A DNA stretch of 64,000 nucleotides from an uncultured Candidatus Melainabacteria bacterium (GTDB taxonomy: Bacteria; Cyanobacteriota; Vampirovibrionia; Gastranaerophilales; Gastranaerophilaceae). Position numbers and translations under genes: made by a program. Every line of letters starts with the position of its first letter. Within the stretch, counting starts at the first letter, position 1. The stretch lies in the NCBI GenBank assembly GCA_947090755.1, contig CAMUPF010000008.1, positions 3,901 through 67,900 of the forward strand, in the 5' to 3' direction. The notes beneath the pieces are model-generated. The model made no database searches. It was not told where the DNA came from and saw nothing but the letters and a program-made list of their open reading frames with translations. Positions 1,807-57,402 of this stretch are shown piece by piece.

Positions 1807-2947
1807 TTAGCGCTTGATACATCTTATAAGAGTTCCGCCGGATGTCCGTTCTTTAAGCATTCTGTCACCAGGCGCAAAGCCTATATAATAAGCTTTGTCC
1901 GCAGAAACGATTGTACTTGACCAGTATGAATTTGTGCCGTCCTCCAGTCCCCATAGTGTTCTGTTGAAAAACATTGAGGATAATTCTTCTATGTTTGGCA
2001 GCCTGCTTTCGCTGTCAAGTTGCTGGCACAATCGACCGGCATTTATTTGATTTCCCGCGGGAGCATTTTGAGGAAGCGGCAATGGCGCTACGACGACGGT
2101 ATCTGTCGGATAAAGCGCTGTAATTGCACCCATATCCTTGCCAAAAGTATTAGGGCCTTTGTTGCCGTTTAAGTCAAAAACAAAGTTTGCACACATCGTA
2201 GGCTGTGTGTATTCTCCGGTATTGGCAAGCCCCTGATTTGAGTTATGAAACCCGCAATTAGGATTATAGTAAACAACAATACTTTCGCCGTTTTGAGTTT
2301 CAAACGCCGCGGCTTTCGTATTTGTCTGGTTATACACGAAACTTGCTCCGTTAACGCTGTTTACGTGAGAACCCGAGAACATTGAATTTAAATCTGCCAG
2401 TGTTTTTGGAAACGATGAAATGGTTTGACCTTTTAGTGTTGTGAAAGTTGAGGTAATTCCGCAATCTGCGAGGTGTTCAGCGTCACATATATTGTTAATT
2501 TTAAGAACTTTTGCTAACCCTTCTGTAACGAAAGTTTCTGCGGCAGTGTCAGTTGTATCGTTTAATGTTCCGTAGCCGTTGAGTGATGGCATTAATGCGA
2601 TGGCCTGAGAGAATCTTGCATAAAGTGCCTTGCGTTGTGTGTTCCATGTGCGTTCGTTAATGTTACCCGTCAAACTAGGCAGCGTAATGGCCGCAACCAC
2701 GCCGATTATGGTTAAGGACAGCAGGATTTCGGCCATGGTAAAGGCCAAGCCGAGCAGAGCCACGGAGCAAGGCTTGCCTTGCGAAGAGACGAGCGTGCGA
2801 CGGTCAAGACCGCGCTCTTGACCGCTAACGCGAGCGGTGGCGTTTAACGCGAGGCGCAGTACCGGCGTTGCGTTAGCGTGCTCGGCTTGCCCCCCCCCCC
2901 CTACTGTACAGGCCCATATTACAAGGGGTTTCAGCTTTTGTGTTCAT
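1807..2947 (-). CDS. type IV pilin-like (prepilin) protein with DUF1566/Lcl-like C-terminal domain, paralog 1; frame broken at homopolymer tract
   Basis: ORF 1807..2763 carries A/FTMAEILLSLTIIGVVAAITLPSL (Phe+1, Glu+5 prepilin motif) and a C-terminal RLPNIEEL..YWSST..IRCIKR. SD GGAGG plus ATG at 2947 is one frame off and stops at 2873-2875. The pilin frame itself is open from 2943 downward. Confidence 0.7.
2764..2889. repeat. GC-rich hairpin-rich 126-nt block inside the leader-coding region of pilin paralog 1
   Basis: Stems gcaaggc/gccttgc (2767-2782), ggtcaaga/tcttgacc (2802-2823) and gctaacgc/gcgttagc (2824-2831 with 2870-2877). GC content is far above the flanks. No counterpart in paralogs 2 and 3. 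Confidence 0.6.
2890..2901. repeat. homopolymeric C12 (G12 on the coding strand) tract
   Basis: Counted directly: c at 2890, ten c at 2891-2900, c at 2901. Confidence 0.95.
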
Positions 2948-22988: not shown

Positions 22989-24149
22989 ATGAATAGTCCG
23001 TTAGTATCACTATTTATACCGTATTATAATGATAAAACTTTTTTAAGGGTTTCTATAGAGTCTGTATTGTCACAAACTTATAAAAACTGGGAGTTGATTT
23101 TGGTAAACCATGCATCAACTGATTCAAGTCGTGAGATAGCTCATTCATATAATGACAGTAGAATTAAACATGTTGACGTTAGCTGTAATTTAGGGGTTGG
23201 CGGTGGCGGGCTGCTAATGACAAAATTTCTGGAACAGGCTAAGGGCAAATATGTTAAATTTTTATGCGCTGATGATATGTTGCTTGATGATGGATTATCA
23301 ATTCTCGTTGATTATATGGAAAGTCATCCTGATATAGATTTTGCATTTGGCAATTTGAATTATATTAATGAAAACGGCAGGTCTCTGGGGAAAGATTTTT
23401 TCTCGAATAGAGAATATTTTTCTGTTGATAATACTGAAGCTGACTGTATACGTCTTTATTCTAAAGGATATAGTTTTTTACCGTATATTGGCAGTATTGC
23501 GAAACGCCAAATTTTCAATAATATAACAATAAACAAAACGATTATTATGACATTTGATATGTCTTTATGGCTTTCGCTGCTGTGTAAGGGATATAAAATC
23601 GGTTATATTGAACAACTTATCGGAAATTATAGAATTCATAAAGAACAGGCCTCTGCAATACAAAAAAGAAGACAGGCTGAAATGTTAAGTTCGCATGAAT
23701 GGGGAATATTTTGGAAGATTTTTCTTACTATTGAAAGCGTAGATTTGGCAAAAGAGGTATGGCCCGAGAGCGATTTAGCAGAGAAACTTACCCGTAAAGA
23801 AGATATCCCTTTTTTTGTAGCATATATGCTATTTGATTTCTGGATAATTTCGCAGGAAATATATGCTTATATCGCCTCCTTACTTGATGACGATTGCAAG
23901 CGTCAATACTTAATCGAAACATTCGGTTTTGGTGTCAGAGAGTTGAGGAAAGCCTGTCTGAATAAGTTACAAACTAATAATTCAGCGAAAATGAATTCCT
24001 TGAAAAAATATAAAACTAAACTTTATATGAAAGGCGTTAAGGATTTAAATTTACTGGATATGATTTATCTTGCGTTTAGAAAATTTATCAACTTAATTAC
24101 TTTGCGCCCTTTATTTAAACTGTTCAAAAAGAAAAACTATTCGTTATAG
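22989..24149 (+). CDS. family 2 glycosyltransferase (paralog B)
   Basis: VSLFIPYYNDKTFLRVSIESVLSQTYKNWELILVNHASTDSSREI. ATG 22989 after AAAGGA; the tracked ORF starts at TTG 22983. Confidence 0.8.
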   Translation: MNSPLVSLFIPYYNDKTFLRVSIESVLSQTYKNWELILVNHASTDSSREIAHSYNDSRIKHVDVSCNLGVGGGGLLMTKFLEQAKGKYVKFLCADDMLLDDGLSILVDYMESHPDIDFAFGNLNYINENGRSLGKDFFSNREYFSVDNTEADCIRLYSKGYSFLPYIGSIAKRQIFNNITINKTIIMTFDMSLWLSLLCKGYKIGYIEQLIGNYRIHKEQASAIQKRRQAEMLSSHEWGIFWKIFLTIESVDLAKEVWPESDLAEKLTRKEDIPFFVAYMLFDFWIISQEIYAYIASLLDDDCKRQYLIETFGFGVRELRKACLNKLQTNNSAKMNSLKKYKTKLYMKGVKDLNLLDMIYLAFRKFINLITLRPLFKLFKKKNYSL

Positions 24150-24686
24150 AATAAAGTTCATATAGCTTTCGTCGATTTTATCCTGTTCTATTCCGATGTA
24201 TCTTAGAGTTATTGAGGTTGAGGAATGGTTCAGGATTTTTTGTAGAAGCGCGATATCGTTAAACCGGATATAATGGTGATAACCAAACGTTTTTCTTAGC
24301 GAATGGGTACCAACTTTATATTTTATTCCCACTGTTGTGCAAGCCTTATTAATAATCCTGTATGCCTGATGCCTGTCGAGCCGGTTGTTATAAACCGTAG
24401 TAAACAGCGGCTCTTTGTCTTTTTTGCCTTCGATATGACGAATTATTAGTTGTTGTAATTTTTGATTTATCGGGAATCTTTTGTGTTTATGAGTTTTCTT
24501 TTCTGTTATACAAATATGGGTTTTGCCGCGAACATCCCCGACGTTGAGGCCCAGAATATCGGATATTCTGAGTCCGCTGTTTGTTCCCATAACGAAAAAC
24601 AGTAAATCTCTTAAACTTTGCTTTTCAAGAGTGTGTTCAATGCGTTTCAAATCATCTTTGTTTCTAATCGGTTCTACAATGTTCAT
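24144..24686 (-). CDS. small tyrosine recombinase (catalytic domain only, 180 aa)
   Basis: GLRISD (Arg), HSLRKT (His-x-x-Arg), NHSS and LRYIG (Tyr) catalytic residues. No N-terminal SAM-like or arm-binding domain. Confidence 0.8.
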   Translation of the reverse strand: MNIVEPIRNKDDLKRIEHTLEKQSLRDLLFFVMGTNSGLRISDILGLNVGDVRGKTHICITEKKTHKHKRFPINQKLQQLIIRHIEGKKDKEPLFTTVYNNRLDRHQAYRIINKACTTVGIKYKVGTHSLRKTFGYHHYIRFNDIALLQKILNHSSTSITLRYIGIEQDKIDESYMNFIL

Positions 24687-24891: not shown

Positions 24892-24974
24892 TGGGCAGGG
24901 GTGGATTCGAACCACCGTAGGCTCGCACCGACAGATTTACAGTCTGTTCCCTTTAGCCACTCGGGCACCTACCC
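24892..24974 (-). tRNA. tRNA-Tyr (anticodon GTA), class II long variable arm
   Basis: Manual cloverleaf: acceptor GGGTAGG/CCTGCCC, anticodon arm ACAGA-CTGTAAA-TCTGT, T arm GGTGG-TTCGAAT-CCACC. CCA not encoded. Confidence 0.85.
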
Positions 24975-25172
24975 ATATTAAATTTTAGTTTCTTTCCTGC
25001 TCTCTAATGTGTTCCGCCAGTGTCCGTAACCTGCCTAGTGCTCTTTTTCGGCTAATTACTTGTTTTATTTCCTGATGCTATTCATATTCCTTATGGTTGC
25101 GGACCGGCCACACACATTTTTGAGTTTTTATATCAGATTGGTATCTCTGATTAAGTTCGAGATAACGCAATA

Positions 25173-25244
25173 TGCCCTTGACGAGATTTGAACTCGTGGC
25201 CTCTCCCTTACCAAGGGAGTGCGCTACCCCTGCGCCACAAGGGC
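25173..25244 (-). tRNA. tRNA-Thr (anticodon GGT)
   Basis: Acceptor GCCCTTG/CAAGGGC, D arm GCGC-AGGGGTA-GCGC, anticodon arm CTCCC-TTGGTAA-GGGAG, T arm ACGAG-TTCAAAT-CTCGT. Confidence 0.85.
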
Positions 25245-25419
25245 TTGCCTTCTGGTTTGCCGCACTTTGTAATTCTGAAGGGAACCAAGGGAGTGCTGCT
25301 ACCCTCCTCCACTCAAACGATATTCTAATCGTTTTCGCGGAGTCCTTGCCACAAGGGCTCTTTTGGACGCCTCTAGCGTTACGAGCCAACCCGTAAACCC
25401 TTTCCGGCACCCGAGAAAT

Positions 25420-25491
25420 AGCCGGCAATAGGAATCGAACCTACAACCTACGGTTTACAAAACCGTTGCTCTACCGTTGAGCTATGCCGGC
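25420..25491 (-). tRNA. tRNA-Thr (anticodon TGT)
   Basis: Acceptor GCCGGCA/TGCCGGC, anticodon arm ACGGT-TTTGTAA-ACCGT, T arm GTAGG-TTCGATT-CCTAT. Confidence 0.85.
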
Positions 25492-29396: not shown

Positions 29397-30415
29397 ATGA
29401 AAAACAATATTGTAAACATTTTGACAGGGGGGGGGGGCCTCTCTTAACAGGCTTCACTATGGCGGAGATACTTCTGTCATTAACAATAATCGGTGTGGTT
29501 GCGGCGATAACGCTTCCGTCGCTGACAGGCAACATTAACGAACGCACATGGAACACCCAGAGAAAAGCACTTTATGCCCGTATGAGTCAGGCGATTGCCC
29601 TAATGCCGGCGTTGAACGGTTACGGAACTTTGACAGAGGGCAACGAATCAACGTCAGCCGTCGACACCGCTGCCGAAACTTTCGTCACGGAAGGCCTTTC
29701 AAAAGTTCTCAAAATTAATAATATTTGTGACTCCGACCACCTCGCGGATTGCGGTATACCTACCCAATTTAATAATATCGGTGGAGATGTTGTATCTACC
29801 TGGCCTCAAACTTTTGTTGCTTTGAACGGGATGTTTAACGGTTCCTATGAAAACTATGATGGTTCAAGTGTAAATGTTATTTGGACTTATTCACAAACAG
29901 ATACGAAAGTCGCGGCATTTGAAACCGCAAATGGAGAAAGCGTTGCTGCGTATTATAATCCTTATTGTGTAGGTAATTTTAATGAAACAAATGAATATTA
30001 TATTCAACCTAAAGTTTGTGCAAATTTTATATATGACTTGAATGGATCTAAAGGACCTAATACTGTTGGGAAGGACATTGGGTTTATGACGGTATTTTAT
30101 CCTACTGATTCAGTTGTAGTTGCGCCTCATCCTTCGGTTAGACTTGCGACAAACCAGCGGGTTGTGCAGGCTGAGGCAGGGGCGGCCTGTTTCGCGCTGG
30201 ATAATGAAACAAGAGTTCCCAATATTCATGAGATTGCGTCTATGTTTACGAATAGGCTGTTAATGAAATCTACAATCACTGAAACAGGAACTAATGGGAT
30301 TTGGTCGGGTTCAAAATATTCTGCGTCTTATGACTGGTTATTCAACTGGGCTTGTGGAAAATGTATGTTGAAAGACCATGCTTGGACAGGAAATGTTTGG
30401 TGTATAAATCGTTAA
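29397..30415 (+). CDS. type IV pilin-like (prepilin) protein with DUF1566/Lcl-like C-terminal domain, paralog 2; leader interrupted by G11 tract (OFF frame)
   Basis: RBS GGGAGAAAGGA, ATG 29397, MKNNIVNILT, then G11, then TAA at 29445. With 12 G the frame reads GGGGPLLTG/FTMAEILLSLTIIGVVAAITLPSL and joins ORF 29459..30415. C-terminal RVPNIHEI..IWSGS..VWCINR. Confidence 0.8.
29427..29437 (+). repeat. homopolymeric G11 tract
   Basis: Counted directly: 29427-29430 plus 29431-29437. Confidence 0.95.
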
Positions 30416-40202: not shown

Positions 40203-40276
40203 GTGCTTGTAGCTCAGCCGAATAGAGCGTTGGTCTCCGAAGCCAAAGGTCACGGGTTTGAATCCCGTCAGGCACA
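40203..40276 (+). tRNA. tRNA-Arg (anticodon CCG)
   Basis: Acceptor GTGCTTG/CAGGCAC, anticodon arm TTGGT-CTCCGAA-GCCAA, T arm ACGGG-TTTGAAT-CCCGT. Confidence 0.85.
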
Positions 40277-40282
40277 ATTTAA

Positions 40283-40356
40283 GGGCTCGTAGCTCAGTAG
40301 GATAGAGCAACGGTTTCCTAAACCGGAGATCGCGAGTTCGACTCTCGCCGGGCCCA
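40283..40356 (+). tRNA. tRNA-Arg (anticodon CCT)
   Basis: Acceptor GGGCTCG/CGGGCCC, anticodon loop TTCCTAA, T arm GCGAG-TTCGACT-CTCGC. Confidence 0.8.
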
Positions 40357-40430: not shown

Positions 40431-41408
40431 ATGAAAAGATTTTTTACGGTGAAATCTGCCGCTTTTACTATGGCCGAAATTCTGTTGTCTTTGACAATCA
40501 TCGGTGTTGTTGCGGCGATTACGTTACCGTCTTTGACCGGTAACATTAACGAACGAACATGGGCGACTCAAAAGAAAGCGCTTTATGCACGTATGTCACA
40601 GGCAATTCCGTTGCTTGATTCTATGAATACTTATGATGACGCCGAGTCTTTCATAGCAGGCGCATTGAATAAAGTTACTAAAATCAATAACGTTTGCGCG
40701 CAAGACCATTTGGAAGATTGCGGTATTAACAAAGATTTGTTAGGAAGACTTGCTGACGGTACGACAACTTCTTTCCCTGAAACCTGGTCTGCTTTAGGTA
40801 TTGATAAGCAATTCTCTTATGCTTCAGCAGCGGATGATACGGCAGAAGCAACTTCAAACAAAAAATTGAGTGCTAATCAGGCAATGGTTGCAGCATTTGA
40901 AACCGGAAACGGTGAATCAATTGTTCTTTATTACAACCCTGATTGTACTGCCGATCAGGAACAGGCGCCAAATGCCATTGTCGACGGTTCCGGTACAAAC
41001 TACATAGACATGTTTGATCACGTATGTATCAATATGATTTATGACTTGAATTCAAACAAAGGACCAAACGCAGTTGGTAAAGATATTGGATTTATGACTG
41101 TATTCTATCCTTCAGACGCAACGGTTGTTTCTCCGGTTCCTTACGTTCAGTCATCAAGCTCTGCGACTTGTGACAGCGAATACAGATTGCCTAACAGATT
41201 CGAAGCTGCGGCATTCGCTCTTAACTCTACTTTAATCAGCGCTACGGCAGAAGGCCCGTATTTAACATCAACTAAGGCGTCAACCGGTAATGATACTTAT
41301 GTTTATATTCAAGATAAAAATTCAAGCGGTGAAATCAAAGCTTATACTAAAAAGATAACCGACGGCGCCTCTGCAGGTGTTTCATTCTCCAGATGCGTAA
41401 AACGTTAG
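40431..41408 (+). CDS. type IV pilin-like (prepilin) protein with DUF1566/Lcl-like C-terminal domain, paralog 3 (no homopolymer tract)
   Basis: MKRFFTVKSAA/FTMAEILLSLTIIGVVAAITLPSLTGNINERTW. C-terminal YRLPNRFEAAAF..SRCVKR. Confidence 0.8.
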   Translation: MKRFFTVKSAAFTMAEILLSLTIIGVVAAITLPSLTGNINERTWATQKKALYARMSQAIPLLDSMNTYDDAESFIAGALNKVTKINNVCAQDHLEDCGINKDLLGRLADGTTTSFPETWSALGIDKQFSYASAADDTAEATSNKKLSANQAMVAAFETGNGESIVLYYNPDCTADQEQAPNAIVDGSGTNYIDMFDHVCINMIYDLNSNKGPNAVGKDIGFMTVFYPSDATVVSPVPYVQSSSSATCDSEYRLPNRFEAAAFALNSTLISATAEGPYLTSTKASTGNDTYVYIQDKNSSGEIKAYTKKITDGASAGVSFSRCVKR

Positions 41409-47207: not shown

Positions 47208-48374
47208 ATGAGTACTCAAAGTGTAAATTTAATAAATTCTAAGGATTTATCGTATCAGTACGACTGGTTTCAAAAAACATTTCCGCCGGTCGTACAGGAA
47301 GTTTTTGATAACTTTTTCGGGCAGAATTTCACGTTTACTCTTCTTGGCGTTTGTAAAAATGTCAATGCGGTTTCTGATAAGGATGCGTATTTTGTCACCA
47401 AAATTAAAATTGATAAACAGCATGATATCTTTTTCCGTATATCAGAAACCTCTATCTCGCTTATACTTGAGAGGGTTCTGGGCAGGCCAAACGGTGCGTT
47501 TGATTTGAATAAGCTTACTGAATTGGAAACTAAGATTATTACAACCTTTAATGATTGTCTTTACAGGTCTGTTGTTAACTTCCTGAAGCCTGCGCCGCCG
47601 ACTCTGGCAAGAACAAATTTTGATGTCGTATATCTGGTATTTATTCTGACCGATGGTGAAACAGGTAAATCCGGAAGGTTTGTTGTTACGCTCCCCGATG
47701 TCTTACTGGAGCCAGAATCTATTGAGGCTCAGGGCGAGTTTTCGGTAGAACATTTTGAAAAAAGTACAATTCAGGCCCGTTTAGAGGTTGGCAGGACTAT
47801 ATTTAAACTGCACGATTTGAAACACCTCGAAATTGATGATATGGTGGTGTTTGAAAATAGTAATACGGATAGATTAAAGTTGTATTTCAGGGATTATGAA
47901 ACGGATGTGTTGTTGAAACCTAATTTAAGTTTGGTGGTACCGGTTGATAATGATGGAGGTTCTGAGGTGTCAGAAAATGAAAATATAAATATTTGGGATA
48001 GTATTGAGGTTGAGATGGTCGGCCACTTTGATGCTGTTGATATTACGCTTGGTGAATTGAAGAAGATTCAGGCCGGAATGGTGGTTGATTTGACTTCAAT
48101 TTATCAAAACAGAGTGACGTTAACCGTTGAGGATAAACAGATTGCGTCCGGCGAACTTGTTATCATTAACGATAAGTACGGCGTGAAGATTACAGAAGTT
48201 TACGCTCCAAAAGCGGCGGATGAAATCGCTCAGGCTCCTGTATCGGAGGGTGTGCCTGCTTCTGATACGGTGGGAGCAGTGGATGATATCCCTGAGGTTT
48301 CAACCGGTGGAGATGGTGTCGGAGATGATGAAGAATTCGATTATAGCGATTTCGATTTAGAGGAGGATATTTAA
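47208..48374 (+). CDS. flagellar motor switch protein, FliM-like with C-terminal FliN/SpoA domain and acidic tail
   Basis: LILERVLGRPNG..LTELETKI (FliM middle-domain-like). The C-terminal LGELKKIQAGMVVDLTS..VEDKQIASGELVIINDKYGVKITEV is a SpoA/FliN fold signature. Confidence 0.7.
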   Translation: MSTQSVNLINSKDLSYQYDWFQKTFPPVVQEVFDNFFGQNFTFTLLGVCKNVNAVSDKDAYFVTKIKIDKQHDIFFRISETSISLILERVLGRPNGAFDLNKLTELETKIITTFNDCLYRSVVNFLKPAPPTLARTNFDVVYLVFILTDGETGKSGRFVVTLPDVLLEPESIEAQGEFSVEHFEKSTIQARLEVGRTIFKLHDLKHLEIDDMVVFENSNTDRLKLYFRDYETDVLLKPNLSLVVPVDNDGGSEVSENENINIWDSIEVEMVGHFDAVDITLGELKKIQAGMVVDLTSIYQNRVTLTVEDKQIASGELVIINDKYGVKITEVYAPKAADEIAQAPVSEGVPASDTVGAVDDIPEVSTGGDGVGDDEEFDYSDFDLEEDI

Positions 48375-48375
48375 G

Positions 48376-48849
48376 GTGACTTCTTATCTTTTGACTTTTA
48401 CGGTTTATACAATGGCTATGGTTGGCATGATTTTTCTTGCGCTGTTTGCTTATAAAAAGTTTTCTGTGCAAAATAATCGTGTTTCGCAATCAAATTTTCT
48501 TGAAGTTGAAGATTGCGTGACTCTCGGTATGCGTAAACAGTTGTATGTTGTAAGAGCAGGAGAAGAAAAATTTTTAATTGCGTCTGATGCAGAAAGAACG
48601 ACATTCCTTTCAAAACTTCAAAACTCAGAAACTCCACGAAAAGAAATTAGTTCCTTCGAGGCTATCGGACATTTTTACCCTGAGGAAGAGCGCGAAAATG
48701 TAAGGAAGGACGCTACGGCAGTTTTGAGAAATATAATAAGCACCCCGAGAAAATTTCGCGAAGAGCGAAATTTTGGAGTGGGGTATGAGACAGCGAAGCC
48801 GGGTACGGCCCGCGGTTCAGCGGGGCGGAGCGGCGAAGAACTGCTTTAG
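48376..48849 (+). CDS. fliO: FliO-like flagellar export protein; C-terminal tail encoded by the GC-rich repeat
   Basis: GTG start after AGGAGGA. Single N-terminal TM segment (TFTVYTMAMVGMIFLALFAY). Position between fliM-like and fliP. Confidence 0.6.
   Translation: MTSYLLTFTVYTMAMVGMIFLALFAYKKFSVQNNRVSQSNFLEVEDCVTLGMRKQLYVVRAGEEKFLIASDAERTTFLSKLQNSETPRKEISSFEAIGHFYPEEERENVRKDATAVLRNIISTPRKFREERNFGVGYETAKPGTARGSAGRSGEELL
48750..48848 (+). repeat. GC-rich repeat element, copy E3
   Basis: Hairpin aaaatttcgc-gaaga-gcgaaatttt (48750-48774), core ttggagtggggtatgagacagcgaag (48773-48798), end ggcgaagaactgcttta (48832-48848). Confidence 0.7.
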
Positions 48850-48862
48850 GAGAAAGAAGATA

Positions 48863-49504
48863 ATGGATAGTGTAATAAAAGATATAAACCCTGTTTTACA
48901 GTTACTTGTTGTAATGACGGTATTTTCGCTAATCCCGTTTATTTTCTGCTGTATGACGAGTTTTTTAAGATTTGCGATAGTGTTTTCAATGCTTAAAACC
49001 GCGATGGGAACCCAACAGGTTCCGCCGAGTATTGTAATTATCGGGTTATCAATGGTTTTGACGTTCTACACAATGGGTGGAACATTCCAAAAAATGTATG
49101 AAATGGGGTCTGTACCTTATCAACAGAGCCAGAATATTGTGGCTGCGATTGACGAGGGTTCTAAGCCCTTAAAAGAATTCATGATGAAACAGACGCGTGA
49201 AAGCGATTTGGCGTTTTTTGTCGAGTTGTCGCAGAAAACTCCGCCTAAAAGCCCTGAGGAAATAACAATATGGCAGGTGGCACCCGCATATATTATGAGC
49301 GAATTGAAAACAGCGTTTGAAATCGGGTTTATAATCTTTGTTCCGTTTATTGTATTAGACCTTGTAGTCGCGAACATTTTGCTGGCTCTGGGGATGTTTA
49401 TGCTGTCGCCGACGATTATTTCGCTGCCGTTTAAACTGCTGATATTTATCGCGGTAGACGGCTGGGGATTGATTGTACAGGGGCTTGTGACAAGTTATAA
49501 CTAA
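48863..49504 (+). CDS. fliP: flagellar export apparatus protein FliP
   Basis: ATG 48863 after AGGAGAAAG. FLRFAIVFSMLKTAMGTQQVPP and AFEIGFIIFVPFIVLDLVVANILLALGM are FliP signatures. Confidence 0.9.
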   Translation: MDSVIKDINPVLQLLVVMTVFSLIPFIFCCMTSFLRFAIVFSMLKTAMGTQQVPPSIVIIGLSMVLTFYTMGGTFQKMYEMGSVPYQQSQNIVAAIDEGSKPLKEFMMKQTRESDLAFFVELSQKTPPKSPEEITIWQVAPAYIMSELKTAFEIGFIIFVPFIVLDLVVANILLALGMFMLSPTIISLPFKLLIFIAVDGWGLIVQGLVTSYN

Positions 49505-49529
49505 CCGGAAAGCGTGGAGGTGTCGAGTT

Positions 49530-50024
49530 ATGGAACTTATGGTTGAATATTTAGCAAAAGGCTTTCTGGTAATGCTTTCGATTTCAATGCCGTGTGTATT
49601 AGTTGCGGCCGGAATCGGTCTTGTCGTCGGTATTTTGCAGGCGGTTACACAGGTTCAGGAACAAACTATCGCCGCGGCGCCGAAAATTCTCGGTGTATTC
49701 CTGATAATTATTATCGGCGGTTACGCATTTATGAATAATTTAAGTAACTTTTTTATTCAGGGGATGGGCTTAGCGTTCAATGTTTTGCCTAAGAATGACA
49801 GTTTTGTACTTTCTTCTGATTATTACAAATACACAACACCGTTTCAGGGTGAAATGGATGCTGATAAATTCAAAAATGTTCCTGATATCAATGAAATTAT
49901 GAAAAATCCGGGAAAGGTTCCATATATTGATAAATATGAACGTGCAAAATATCATCCGTCAGCGCGTACACCGATGCCGCGTCCTAATCTGATTGAAACG
50001 AATCAGATTTTAAGAGGTCAATAG
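49530..50024 (+). CDS. fliQ: flagellar export apparatus protein FliQ with ~75-aa C-terminal extension
   Basis: The first ~88 aa match FliQ (GILQAVTQVQEQTIAAAPKILGVF). The ORF continues for about 75 further residues. Confidence 0.85.
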   Translation: MELMVEYLAKGFLVMLSISMPCVLVAAGIGLVVGILQAVTQVQEQTIAAAPKILGVFLIIIIGGYAFMNNLSNFFIQGMGLAFNVLPKNDSFVLSSDYYKYTTPFQGEMDADKFKNVPDINEIMKNPGKVPYIDKYERAKYHPSARTPMPRPNLIETNQILRGQ

Positions 50025-50028
50025 ACAG

Positions 50029-50814
50029 ATGAACGGGTTTGATTTTCTGACTGAACTTGTGAAGATTTTTCCGGAATTGGATAAATGTCTGATTGTCGGA
50101 ATCTTGATATTCTCAAGGTTGATGGGATTTTCACGATTTGCGCCAATTTTGAACAGAAAAGAAATTCCGGGGATGGTGAAACTTTGTCTTATTTTTATTT
50201 TGACTGTAACGATTACTATGGTTGCAAAGCCTGATGGACAGTTACTTCAGGATTCGTTGTTGTTGTCGATTGTTTTAAATTTCGTCGTCGGCGGACTTCT
50301 GGGGTATGTTGCTCAGGTAATTTTGATTGCGATAGAAGCGGGCGCTGATATGATTAATATGCAAATGGGGCTTTCTTCAGCTATGGTTCTTGATCCGACG
50401 ACTTCAAGTCAGGTGTCGATTCTGGGTAAATGCTTTTCGCTCTTTGCGCTGTGTATTTTTATACATATCGGCGGGTTTTATTGGATGATGAATGCGTTTA
50501 TGAAAAGTATGGAGGTCTTCCCGATTTACGCTACATCTATCCCGCTGGAGAAGATTGTAAACCTTGATTATCTGGTGAAAATTACGTCAAATGTGCTGTA
50601 TATGGGCCTTCAACTTGCGTCACCAGTGCTTCTGGCGACACTCGGACAGGATATTATTCTTGGCGTAATTTCAAAAACTGCGCCGCAGGTAAACGTTTTC
50701 CAGTTAAGCTTTCTTTTTAAACCTGTACTTGGCGCGGCGATAATGGTTTGGATTTTGCCGATGCTGTTTAATATAATTCAGGATTATCTGACGTCATACA
50801 GCCGAATATTTTAA
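50029..50814 (+). CDS. fliR: flagellar export apparatus protein FliR
   Basis: 261 aa, multi-TM, FSRLMGFSRFAPIL and GLQLASPVLLATL motifs. Follows fliQ. Confidence 0.85.
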   Translation: MNGFDFLTELVKIFPELDKCLIVGILIFSRLMGFSRFAPILNRKEIPGMVKLCLIFILTVTITMVAKPDGQLLQDSLLLSIVLNFVVGGLLGYVAQVILIAIEAGADMINMQMGLSSAMVLDPTTSSQVSILGKCFSLFALCIFIHIGGFYWMMNAFMKSMEVFPIYATSIPLEKIVNLDYLVKITSNVLYMGLQLASPVLLATLGQDIILGVISKTAPQVNVFQLSFLFKPVLGAAIMVWILPMLFNIIQDYLTSYSRIF

Positions 50815-50824
50815 CTGTCCGAGC

Positions 50825-50933
50825 AAATCTCGCGATAAGGAACGTGAGCGAGATTTGGGAGTGGCGTATGAGACAGCGCAGTCGCGGGTTGACTCGCGTG
50901 AGCGAGGCAAGCAGGCGACGGAGAACTGCTTTA
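50825..50933 (+). repeat. GC-rich repeat element, copy E4
   Basis: Hairpin aaatctcgc-(14 nt)-gcgagattt (50825-50856), core ttgggagtggcgtatgagacagcgcag (50855-50881), end ggcgacggagaactgcttta (50914-50933). Confidence 0.7.
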
Positions 50934-55590: not shown

Positions 55591-55776
55591 ATGGCACCGG
55601 ATTTGAAAAAGATTGAACAGATGGCAGAAAAAATTCTTAAGATTATTATCGTTATGCGATATTATTGCAAGCAAAGCGAAGACGAGTATGAAATGGGGAA
55701 TGTCATACCGCTTATTGATATTTTATGGAAAGAATCTGACAATTTGGTTTGTGAAATTTGCGGGTTTAATGATTAA
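55591..55776 (+). CDS. hypothetical small protein
   Basis: AAAGGAG RBS, ATG 55591, 61 aa. Divergent from the XRE gene, with TTGACA-17-TATAAT in the spacer. Confidence 0.5.
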   Translation: MAPDLKKIEQMAEKILKIIIVMRYYCKQSEDEYEMGNVIPLIDILWKESDNLVCEICGFND

Positions 55777-57251
55777 AGTTCTTCGTAAATTTCAATCGGG
55801 GCGTAGAAGGAAACTTCTTCGCGCGCAAGAACACTGACTTCATTGAAATAGCTTGATAGCATTTTGAATATCAGGTGGCGGAATTCAAGCGGAACAATTA
55901 TTGTACGGCAATTGTATTTCGTCATTAGTTTTTCAAGCTTTTTAGCCAGTTGATCAGCGTATTTTGCGTCGATTTTGATGATTTCTTCGTCTTCCTCTTC
56001 TTCAACGGCTGTTTCGCAGACGTTTAGGAGCGAATCTTCTGTGATTTCGATTGCAGGGATTACGCCGTCTTCGTTTACAAAATTCCTTGTAATCTGGCGG
56101 CCGATTGAAAGACGCAGTTTGCGCAAAATGTCTGATTTGTCGCAATCGTTCGCAAAATCATTAATTTTTTCTAAAATAAATGTGATGTCTTTTATTGAAA
56201 CTCTTTCATTGATGAGGCTTGTCAGAATGTATCTTAAATCTGCAAGGGTTAAAAATTCAGGGATTAGGTTTTCGATTAAGTAGGAGTTGTTTTCATCAAC
56301 GACTTCGATGTAGTTGTCAAGTTCGTTGTAGTCTAAGATTTCGTCAACAAATTTTACAGCGATAAATTCCAGCGCGCGGGTTATGCATTGAGCGCCGGAA
56401 AGTCCTTTTTCCCAGAAGTCTTTGCATTTTGTTTTTGGAACCCATACGATTTTTTTGCCTGAAATGGCGTCATCGTCATAGATTGCGTCTTTAATTTTTT
56501 TGTCGGTAAGGATATTGTCAGCGAAAAACATCAGATGATTAGGGTAGACGATTCCTCTAAAGACTTCCAGCCCGCGGATTTTTATGGTGTATTCGTAAGG
56601 GCTCAGGGTTTCGTCGTCCTTAAAAACGATTTTAGGGATTACGTAACCCAGTTCTTCGGTGAGTTTAAGGCGAAGTTTGACGGTTTCTGCGATAAGTTCT
56701 TCTTCGTCGATATCCTGTTCTGCGTCGATGTAGCCGAGGATTTCTTCGCTTAAAGTTATGGCAAGCTTGTCTTCGTGAAGTTTTTTGTACATACCTTCGG
56801 GCGAAGTGGTTTCCGCAAGCTGGCGCTTGAGTTCTTCAAGTTCGCGCAAACCCGTTGATATTCTGTCGTTAAGGCGTTTGCGGCCAAGTGAGGCAGGCGC
56901 TTCGTTTTCGAGTTCTTTTTTTGCGCGTGCAACTTTGTTTTTAACTTCTTTGATTTTGTGTTGGATTTCAAGGCACGCTTCATAGGGTGTAAGTGTAGGG
57001 GATAGAAGTTTTTCCATCTGGCTTTTGAAGTTAGAGATGTTTATTTCGTCCGTGTTTCGGGTGTAATTTTCGTCTTCGGATTCTTTCATAAAAATGCAGT
57101 TGTACTGATAGCCTTCATCCATTTCGACTTCGTTGATGGTGTAGAGTTCCCAGCCGTTCATAGACATTTCGTTCAACAGGTTTTGAAGAGCCTGTGTGTC
57201 TTCGCTTGAACAGGTTTTGATAACATATTGCATTTTCTTGTTTTTAAACAT
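55773..57251 (-). CDS. soluble protein with DUF4177-like N-terminus, coiled coil and FlhA C-terminal (FHIPEP cytoplasmic) domain; no transmembrane region
   Basis: LTEELGYVIPKIVFKDDETLSPYEYTIKIRGLEVFRGIVYP and LTSLINERVSIKDITFILEKINDFA closely parallel conserved FlhA-C blocks. The N-terminus NGWELYTINE.. is DUF4177-like. Confidence 0.65.
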   Translation of the reverse strand: MFKNKKMQYVIKTCSSEDTQALQNLLNEMSMNGWELYTINEVEMDEGYQYNCIFMKESEDENYTRNTDEINISNFKSQMEKLLSPTLTPYEACLEIQHKIKEVKNKVARAKKELENEAPASLGRKRLNDRISTGLRELEELKRQLAETTSPEGMYKKLHEDKLAITLSEEILGYIDAEQDIDEEELIAETVKLRLKLTEELGYVIPKIVFKDDETLSPYEYTIKIRGLEVFRGIVYPNHLMFFADNILTDKKIKDAIYDDDAISGKKIVWVPKTKCKDFWEKGLSGAQCITRALEFIAVKFVDEILDYNELDNYIEVVDENNSYLIENLIPEFLTLADLRYILTSLINERVSIKDITFILEKINDFANDCDKSDILRKLRLSIGRQITRNFVNEDGVIPAIEITEDSLLNVCETAVEEEEDEEIIKIDAKYADQLAKKLEKLMTKYNCRTIIVPLEFRHLIFKMLSSYFNEVSVLAREEVSFYAPIEIYEEL

Positions 57252-57402
57252 ATCTGACTCCTATATATGTATAATTATAACATATTTTTGAACCTCCGCC
57301 TAGTGCGAAATGATGAAATTATTTTTACAAAAATTCACATATTTGCCACGCAATAATTTTTTTCAGGTGTTTTTGATATAATGAAAAACAAGGAAATTTT
57401 AT

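Follow-up and report, generated by a model that had tools for sequence, protein, structure and literature searches.

A soluble, conserved paralogue of the FlhA cytoplasmic domain in the Gastranaerophilales

The 64,000-nucleotide stretch of DNA analysed here, referred to as the window, stems from an uncultured Candidatus Melainabacteria bacterium (assembly GCA_947090755.1, contig CAMUPF010000008.1, positions 3,901 to 67,900 of the forward strand). It encodes a soluble 492-aa protein in which residues ~140-481 make up the complete cytoplasmic domain (FlhA-C) of FlhA, a protein of flagellar export. The gene is functional and conserved across the Gastranaerophilales, the non-photosynthetic gut Melainabacteria. 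In every type III secretion system (T3SS), flagellar or injectisome, FlhA-C is the platform on which docking and switching take place; to our knowledge, it has been studied only within the membrane protein. An earlier note on this DNA, made from the sequence alone, had pointed to the protein, located ~5 kb past fliR on the opposite strand, and had quoted two sequence blocks reminiscent of FlhA-C, both of which lie within the open reading frame (ORF). The gene and the signals preceding it are located as follows.

55773..57251, minus strand: soluble FlhA-C paralogue, full coding sequence including the stop codon (ORF of 492 aa with ATG start; FHIPEP match with E=1.3e-46)
57258..57282, minus strand: extended -10 element TGtTATAAT (57274-57282) and Shine-Dalgarno sequence AGGAG (57258-57262), read from the sequence

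The relationship to FlhA is supported by profile, sequence and structure comparisons. The Pfam family FHIPEP (PF00771) matches aa 140-481 of the paralogue with E=1.3e-46, and this match is limited to profile positions 310-653 of 657, so that the protein carries the cytoplasmic part of FHIPEP only. With the NCBIfam FlhA model TIGR01398 it reaches 149.3 bits, below the equivalog cutoff of 772.1, and SctV models perform less well than FlhA (86 bits for hrcV vs 149 bits). The same ranking was obtained in a sequence search of the PDB, in which FlhA-C of B. subtilis (3mix) was matched with E=4e-23 (E=9e-50 with the family profile), compared with 1e-9 or weaker for SctV. The AlphaFold2 (AF2) model of the single chain has a predicted local distance difference test (pLDDT) score of 69.8 overall and of 80-90 over most of the C-domain. 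Superposed with Foldseek on FlhA-C of Salmonella (6ch2), it gave E=1.7e-19 and a target-normalised TM score of 0.76 over ~350 aligned columns, indicating that all four subdomains (D1-D4) are present; the corresponding scores across FlhA-C structures range from 0.74 to 0.78. The resemblance to the FlhA cytoplasmic domain put forward in the earlier note is thus borne out by both profile and structure. The same holds for the absence of a predicted transmembrane segment, since the highest Kyte-Doolittle mean over 19 residues is 1.28 and none of the windows exceeds 1.6, compared with 79 windows above this value in a canonical FlhA. According to both the Pfam match and hydrophobicity, the polytopic N-terminal membrane domain of FHIPEP (profile positions 1 to ~300) is absent. 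Upstream of the gene, an intergenic region of 151 bp separates it from a divergently oriented uridine-kinase-like gene, which leaves no room for a lost 5' part coding for transmembrane segments.

The paralogue is widespread and under strong constraint. A protein search returned more than 120 clusters of 489-495 aa with 57-92% identity, and an exhaustive HMMER search of 1.8 billion cluster representatives yielded ~17 further full-length representatives (clusters at 50% identity) of 476-507 aa, which extend the family down to 31% identity with unchanged architecture. In the latter search the family is separated by a clear score gap (at least 242 bits) from any other FlhA (at most 153 bits). The length of the orthologous ORF is kept at 484-500 aa in 83 genomic loci, and dN/dS values of 0.018-0.039 were obtained for 15 pairs with 95-97% amino-acid identity, the N-terminal module (aa 1-158) showing values as low as those of the FlhA-C part. 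A pseudogene or gene fragment was considered and rejected on these selection and length data.

Scanning GTDB with one genome for each species revealed 493 stretches encoding a relative. The best 80 of these 493, derived from 80 assemblies, were examined, and all of them hold full-length copies; the titles of these assemblies refer almost without exception to Gastranaerophilales, Gastranaerophilaceae or Melainabacteria. The fusion of the N-terminal module to FlhA-C, whose phylogenetic distribution the earlier note had raised as a question, is therefore present at full length in at least 80 species genomes. Two complete chromosomes carry the gene, namely CP017245.1 (MEL.A1; locus L029) and OZ006972.1. 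Several paralogue-bearing assemblies go under the names Fusobacterium sp., Clostridium sp. CAG:967 or CAG:768, Heliobacteriaceae or Muribaculaceae, probably because these metagenome-assembled genomes were wrongly labelled or binned. The gene may be usable as a marker of the Gastranaerophilales lineage.

The protein is composed of a new N-terminal module, a linker and the FlhA-C body, which are encoded by the following segments.

57081..57251, minus strand: β-α-β-β domain, aa 1-57, weakly DUF4177-like and family-specific (AF2)
56988..57080, minus strand: variable acidic spacer, mostly disordered with one short helix, aa 58-88 (AF2, family alignment)
56805..56987, minus strand: charged two-helix hairpin or coiled coil, aa 89-149 (AF2)
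56763..56804, minus strand: segment resembling the FlhA linker (FlhA_L) with a TSPxxM[YF] motif, aa 150-163 (alignment)
55776..56762, minus strand: FlhA-C body, D1-D4, aa 164-492, with remodelled hinge and D1-D2 pocket (Foldseek, alignment)

The N-terminal domain is predicted with good local confidence (pLDDT 86-90 for aa 7-57) and comprises strands at aa 7-15, 35-44 and 47-57 and a helix at aa 19-31; L26, N27, W34, E41 and F54 are invariant in the family down to 31% identity. Foldseek found no match to its module in the PDB at E<=1e-3, and a sequence search with aa 1-158 returned fragments of its own family only. The relation to DUF4177 (PF13783) that the earlier note had suggested for this domain is weakly supported, with 13.5 bits and E=0.089 compared with a Pfam gathering threshold of 25 bits; values of E<=0.1 occur in 13 of 22 family members (the best being 0.0032), and none of them reaches the Pfam cutoff. 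The spacer that follows has pLDDT values below 50 at aa 60-81 and differs in sequence and length across the family. Both helices of the hairpin (aa 89-116 and 122-149) are well predicted (pLDDT 85-92), charged residues make up 41% of it, and K99, K111 and N128 are conserved. A coiled coil of ~100 aa, as had been noted previously, is therefore roughly right, AF2 giving ~60-85 helical residues.

Directly ahead of D1, aa 149-155 appear, from their sequence, to be like FlhA_L. In the TSPxxM[YF] motif formed by these residues, T149, S150, P151 and M154 do not vary in the 47 members compared. When the linker segment was aligned by hand with E351-S362 of Salmonella, using G368 and R391 as anchors, M154 came to lie opposite W354 and the motif itself opposite E351-N355, the C-terminal part of the FlhA linker. 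At the position of this motif, the canonical FlhA of the lineage has NPNxMYERL.

In the FlhA-C body, conserved and replaced residues occur side by side. Eighteen positions conserved within the family are common to essentially all FlhA-C sequences, among them R391, G399, P403, W465, L544, E547, D553, R579, R655 and E676 in Salmonella numbering (with R391, W465, D553 and R579 corresponding to R194, W270, D355 and R380 of the paralogue). Ten further positions are family-specific and include S168, which corresponds to G368, W280 on D2 and D307-Y308 on D3. Hallmark residues of the export cycle are among those changed in the family. Gly-368 of the GYXLI hinge, which is critical for the open-close domain motions of FlhA-C (PMC9431611), is replaced by Ser in 22 of 23 paralogues and is Gly in all 29 of the other FlhA-C sequences. 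Phe-459 belongs to the conserved hydrophobic D1-D2 dimple by which chaperone-substrate complexes are recognised (PMC9431611); 20 of the 23 paralogues have Thr or Ser in its place. Furthermore, T490 is replaced by R in 13 of 23 and by other residues elsewhere, H491 by A or another residue, and P457 is variable, while D456 is kept (20/23). The canonical FlhA of the same clade, in contrast, retains G368, D-P-x-Y/F and T-H (490-491). The replacement of both the hinge glycine and the chaperone-pocket residues makes a simple chaperone decoy unlikely.

A full-length flhA, absent from the window, was found at other loci assigned to the lineage, to which the closest hits outside the family led. FlhA proteins of the Melainabacteria type (P0466, P0417, P0498 and P0241) have 696-708 aa; P0466 (696 aa) covers FHIPEP positions 2-656 of 657 with 715 bits. 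Their genes are part of an operon of the order fliE-fliF-X-fliH-flhA. The protein X encoded at the fliG position of this operon (346-350 aa; L086:8134-9177, L092:8172-9212, L100:6657-7709) matches no Pfam family, FliG included, and no sequence in the PDB; it may represent either a highly diverged FliG or a substitute for FliG. In a neighbour-joining (NJ) tree of the C-domains, the soluble paralogues form a monophyletic family (100/100 bootstraps) that is the sister group of the Melainabacteria-type FlhA clade (100/100 bootstraps), with the FlhA proteins of other phyla, of Salmonella, of Helicobacter and of Bacillus falling outside this grouping. The C-domains of the paralogue and canonical FlhA are ~26-27% identical. 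This sister position to the lineage's own FlhA points to an old internal duplication rather than to a split FlhA, and the simplest history suggested by the sequences would be an old duplication of the 3' half of the lineage's own flhA. In line with two genes, Di Rienzi et al. (2013) listed two 'flhA' orthologue groups common to the four Melainabacteria genomes of their study; one group is located between fliH and fliI, and fliPQR and flhB are placed on other contigs.

Further proteins with a non-canonical FlhA-C were encountered. A second family of 570-706 aa (P0264, encoded at L089:10001-12079, P0258, P0244, P0256, P0286, P0255 and P0259) begins with a soluble helical N-domain that is ~50% identical to the N-terminal part of protein X, followed by 2-5 transmembrane helices and FlhA-C (N-domain-TM-FlhA-C, TM denoting the transmembrane part). 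Its FHIPEP match starts at profile position ~256-281, and G368 is kept. In the NJ tree these proteins are intermingled with the canonical FlhA of the lineage, to whose C-domain theirs is ~48% identical, compared with ~26% for the soluble paralogue; judging from the sequences, the family resembles the product of a fusion in which the FHIPEP membrane domain was largely lost. In an unrelated protein, P0236 (895 aa), with P0375 (952 aa) as a member of its cluster, FlhA-C occurs twice in tandem and HEAT-like repeats follow each copy; it has no transmembrane domain and thus represents a further soluble use of the fold. Together, the N-domain-TM-FlhA-C and the tandem FlhA-C/HEAT proteins indicate that FlhA-C is a reusable module.

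The genomic neighbourhood of the paralogue was compared in ~85 loci. In the window, the following genes of the export apparatus are encoded ~5 kb from it.

47208..50814, plus strand: genes for a FliN-like protein (388 aa), FliO, FliP, FliQ and FliR, context of the paralogue (Pfam FliMN_C, FliO, FliP, Bac_export_3 and Bac_export_1)

As the earlier note had stated, this fliOPQR run ends without flhB and flhA. Downstream of fliR lies a convergent UbiA gene, followed by genes for ROK, NanE and an M16 peptidase, and neither flhB nor flhA was found anywhere in the 64-kb window; according to published surveys, including that of Di Rienzi et al. (2013), both genes are located elsewhere in these genomes. 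The link drawn at the time between the paralogue and this truncated operon proved coincidental. The paralogue is found less than 10 kb from fliPQR only in the window, in L001 (a 91% relative) and in L075, and since these are only three of the ~85 loci, the proximity is lineage-specific and reflects no conserved association. A search for conserved synteny across these loci showed that an HTH_3 gene, the uridine-kinase-like gene, the M16 peptidase gene and fliPQR each recur in a few of them, and no canonical FHIPEP N-terminus, a gene encoding only the transmembrane part of FHIPEP included, was found within 10 kb of the paralogue.

Several observations were made on the fliOPQR run itself. The gene previously described as fliM-like (47208-48374, plus strand) encodes a 388-aa protein that matches FliMN_C at aa 265-331 only, so that ~260 N-terminal residues lie outside the Pfam match; it has a very acidic tail, and no FliM-specific domain was detected in it. 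The FliQ ORF (49530-50024, plus strand) comprises 164 aa, ~75 aa beyond the usual length, with the FliQ domain at aa 5-75 followed by a hydrophilic C-terminal extension, and is of the same length in L001. A GC-rich element 3' of fliR (50815-50932) is 76% identical over 89 nt to positions 48763-48847, the 3' end of the fliO ORF at the fliO/fliP junction, and recurs in related loci (L001 18031-18115, L079 1153-1208).

Based on these results, we tentatively propose that the paralogue acts as a static cytoplasmic adaptor or regulator of a flagellar-type export apparatus, by a mechanism that we infer from its features, in which (i) the 3' half of the lineage's flhA, FlhA_L included, would have been duplicated long ago; (ii) the eight-helix membrane domain would have been replaced by the small α/β domain, the flexible acidic spacer and the charged helical hairpin; (iii) the protein would either form an FlhA-C-type ring by self-assembly or attach to one below a flagellar-type export gate, the new N-module standing in for the membrane tether and mediating oligomerisation or partner binding; (iv) it would probably neither undergo the open-close export cycle nor bind canonical FliS/FlgN/FliT-type chaperones, but would serve as a static adaptor or regulator binding a different ligand; and (v) this role would persist in species that lack a filament but have a reduced flagellar export apparatus. 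The seemingly retained linker and the fold core suggest that FlhA-C-type contacts are still made, by self-assembly or by docking onto a ring. The changed hinge and pocket, together with the new invariant surface residues W280 and D307-Y308, point to an adaptor or regulator that is static and binds another ligand, and not to a decoy for FliS/FlgN/FliT-type chaperones. MEL.A1, which possesses the paralogue, lacks the filament, cap and junction proteins and the L/P rings (Di Rienzi et al. 2013). In a published survey, ~25% of Gastranaerophilales genomes had complete and ~75% partial flagellar gene sets; the partial sets include genes such as flhB, fliI and flgG, which were postulated to serve secretion. 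The occurrence of the paralogue in MEL.A1 and in far more species than this ~25% fits a role at the export apparatus and not in filament assembly. The adaptor function that the earlier note had mentioned among its options remains viable.

Several points weigh against the proposed adaptor role. The paralogue is never part of a flagellar operon and has housekeeping neighbours that vary between lineages, so that its genomic context provides no functional link to the T3SS. The full-length AF2 model is of moderate confidence (pLDDT 69.8), and the ring as well as any contacts with FlhA, FliH/I/J or the C-ring are putative. The NJ tree is simple and may be subject to long-branch effects, and the loci with canonical FlhA were placed in the Gastranaerophilales by phylogeny and weak shared gene content. 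Finally, the presence of the paralogue and canonical FlhA in one genome is supported only indirectly, by the list of Di Rienzi et al. (2013) and locus L029.

With regard to its origin, it is very improbable that the paralogue represents the C-terminal half of a FlhA encoded by two genes, with a separate membrane half, as the earlier note had also envisaged. The FlhA_L-like linker just ahead of D1 and the lack of flhA in the 64-kb window would agree with such a split. However, the sister clade possesses full-length FlhA of 696-708 aa with a complete C-domain, encoded next to fliH, FHIPEP N-terminal sequences are missing within 10 kb at ~85 loci, the paralogue's own N-module of 150 aa is under purifying selection, and its C-domain is only ~27% identical to that of canonical FlhA. 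The possibility that the gene is a decaying remnant or a mis-called fragment of flhA is practically negligible. Although automatic annotation names relatives 'FlhA' or 'FHIPEP family ... partial', the length is kept in 83 loci with dN/dS of ~0.03, the architecture is the same down to 31% identity, and the gene has its own Shine-Dalgarno sequence and -10 element within an upstream region of only 151 bp. The relatives of 484-500 aa in the 83 loci, together with these values, likewise speak against the disruption of a full-length flhA, which the earlier note had named as an alternative to its reading.

Three further functional scenarios were considered. That the FlhA-C fold was recruited to scaffold some other process in the cytoplasm, independent of any T3SS and no longer in contact with the flagellar export apparatus, appears unlikely, though less so than the other alternatives. 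It would explain why the gene invariably stands alone with housekeeping genes around it, why its species range goes well beyond the ~25% with full flagellar sets, and why hinge and chaperone-pocket residues gave way to new family-specific invariant residues; the tandem FlhA-C/HEAT and N-domain-TM-FlhA-C architectures also illustrate the modularity of the domain. On the other hand, the FlhA_L motif as well as R391, W465, D553, R579 and R655 stay invariant, non-flagellated relatives retain export-apparatus genes, and the window itself encodes the FliN-like protein and FliOPQR. More doubtful is the idea that, in gut Melainabacteria, which have mostly lost the filament, the paralogue forms a cytoplasmic ring of its own, free or stacked under the membrane-tethered FlhA ring, and might provide the substrate-sorting platform of a flagellum-derived, non-motility secretion system together with the 388-aa FliN-like protein, the 164-aa FliQ, protein X and the N-domain-TM-FlhA-C fusions. 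We regard it as improbable that free FlhA-C acts as a decoy, as the earlier note had supposed, sequestering FliS/FlgN/FliT-type chaperone-substrate complexes and thereby tuning export. The whole D1-D4 fold and, in 20 of 23 paralogues, the dimple residue D456 are kept, and regulation through competition at FlhA-C is known, as reported for FlaG versus FliS-flagellin in C. jejuni (PMC11536152). Nevertheless, this explanation is weakened by the change of F459 to T/S in 20/23, the lack of conservation of T490 and H491 and the variability of P457, whereas the canonical FlhA of the lineage keeps D-P-x-Y/F and T-H. Moreover, the paralogue persists in MEL.A1, which is devoid of the filament, cap and junction proteins and hence of the cargoes of these chaperones.

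Apart from the genes discussed so far, the window encodes three paralogous proteins of ~320 aa (1807-2763, minus strand; 29459-30415 and 40431-41408, plus strand) whose N-termini resemble those of type IV pilins (FTMAEILLSLTIIGVVAAITLPSLTGNINERTW) and whose C-terminal regions are conserved among them; for the one that was searched, no Pfam match was found. Five tRNA genes were detected with Rfam, three of them clustered at 24892-25491 (minus strand) and two paired at 40203-40356 (plus strand). An ORF of 116 aa (25078-25428) overlaps the three-tRNA cluster and is not a gene, and a phage-type integrase-like ORF (24144-24686) adjoins the cluster.

A full-text literature search retrieved no paper on a soluble FlhA-C paralogue, nor on any function of DUF4177. 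In databases, relatives are labelled 'FlhA' or 'FHIPEP family type III secretion protein'. Since pipelines name the paralogue FlhA, flagellar surveys based on KEGG orthology (KO) or gene names may score flhA as present where the paralogue alone occurs. As a soluble, order-wide and constrained protein with altered hinge and pocket, the paralogue constitutes a natural variant in which ring function may be studied apart from the membrane engine; it should be of interest for T3SS specialists. It may help to explain the partial flagellar gene sets of most Gastranaerophilales and renders the question of what 'relic' flagellar genes do in abundant, uncultured gut Melainabacteria more tractable.

Compared with known systems, the paralogue is most similar to FlhA-C as described for Salmonella (3a5i/6ch1) and B. 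subtilis (3mix), with which it shares the four-subdomain fold and core residues and, as it appears, a linker like FlhA_L; it differs from FlhA-C in its native context by the soluble N-module of 150 aa in place of the membrane domain. Measured against FlhA as a whole, it departs in membrane domain, equivalog score, the glycine of GYXLI, the dimple and operon context. The closest relative of its C-domain is the canonical FlhA of Melainabacteria, both having a P-x-x-M-Y linker motif; unlike the paralogue, canonical FlhA has the full FHIPEP membrane domain, G368, the aromatic residue F/Y459, T490 and H491. The orphan flagellar FlhA of Chlamydia (NF004571, ~584 aa) matches the paralogue weakly (E=4e-15) and likewise represents a FlhA homologue in organisms without a full flagellum (PMC2830194). 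A conceptual parallel is provided by an extra, free copy of a C-terminal domain that works with the full-length protein, as in the SctQ-C/FliN type. Such soluble C-terminal copies of T3SS components arise from an internal translation start. The chlamydial FlhA, for its part, retains the membrane domain and is not known to be an extra copy beside a canonical flagellar FlhA. In contrast to SctQ-C, the paralogue is encoded by a separate, long-diverged gene with a new N-module and does not originate from an internal start within flhA.

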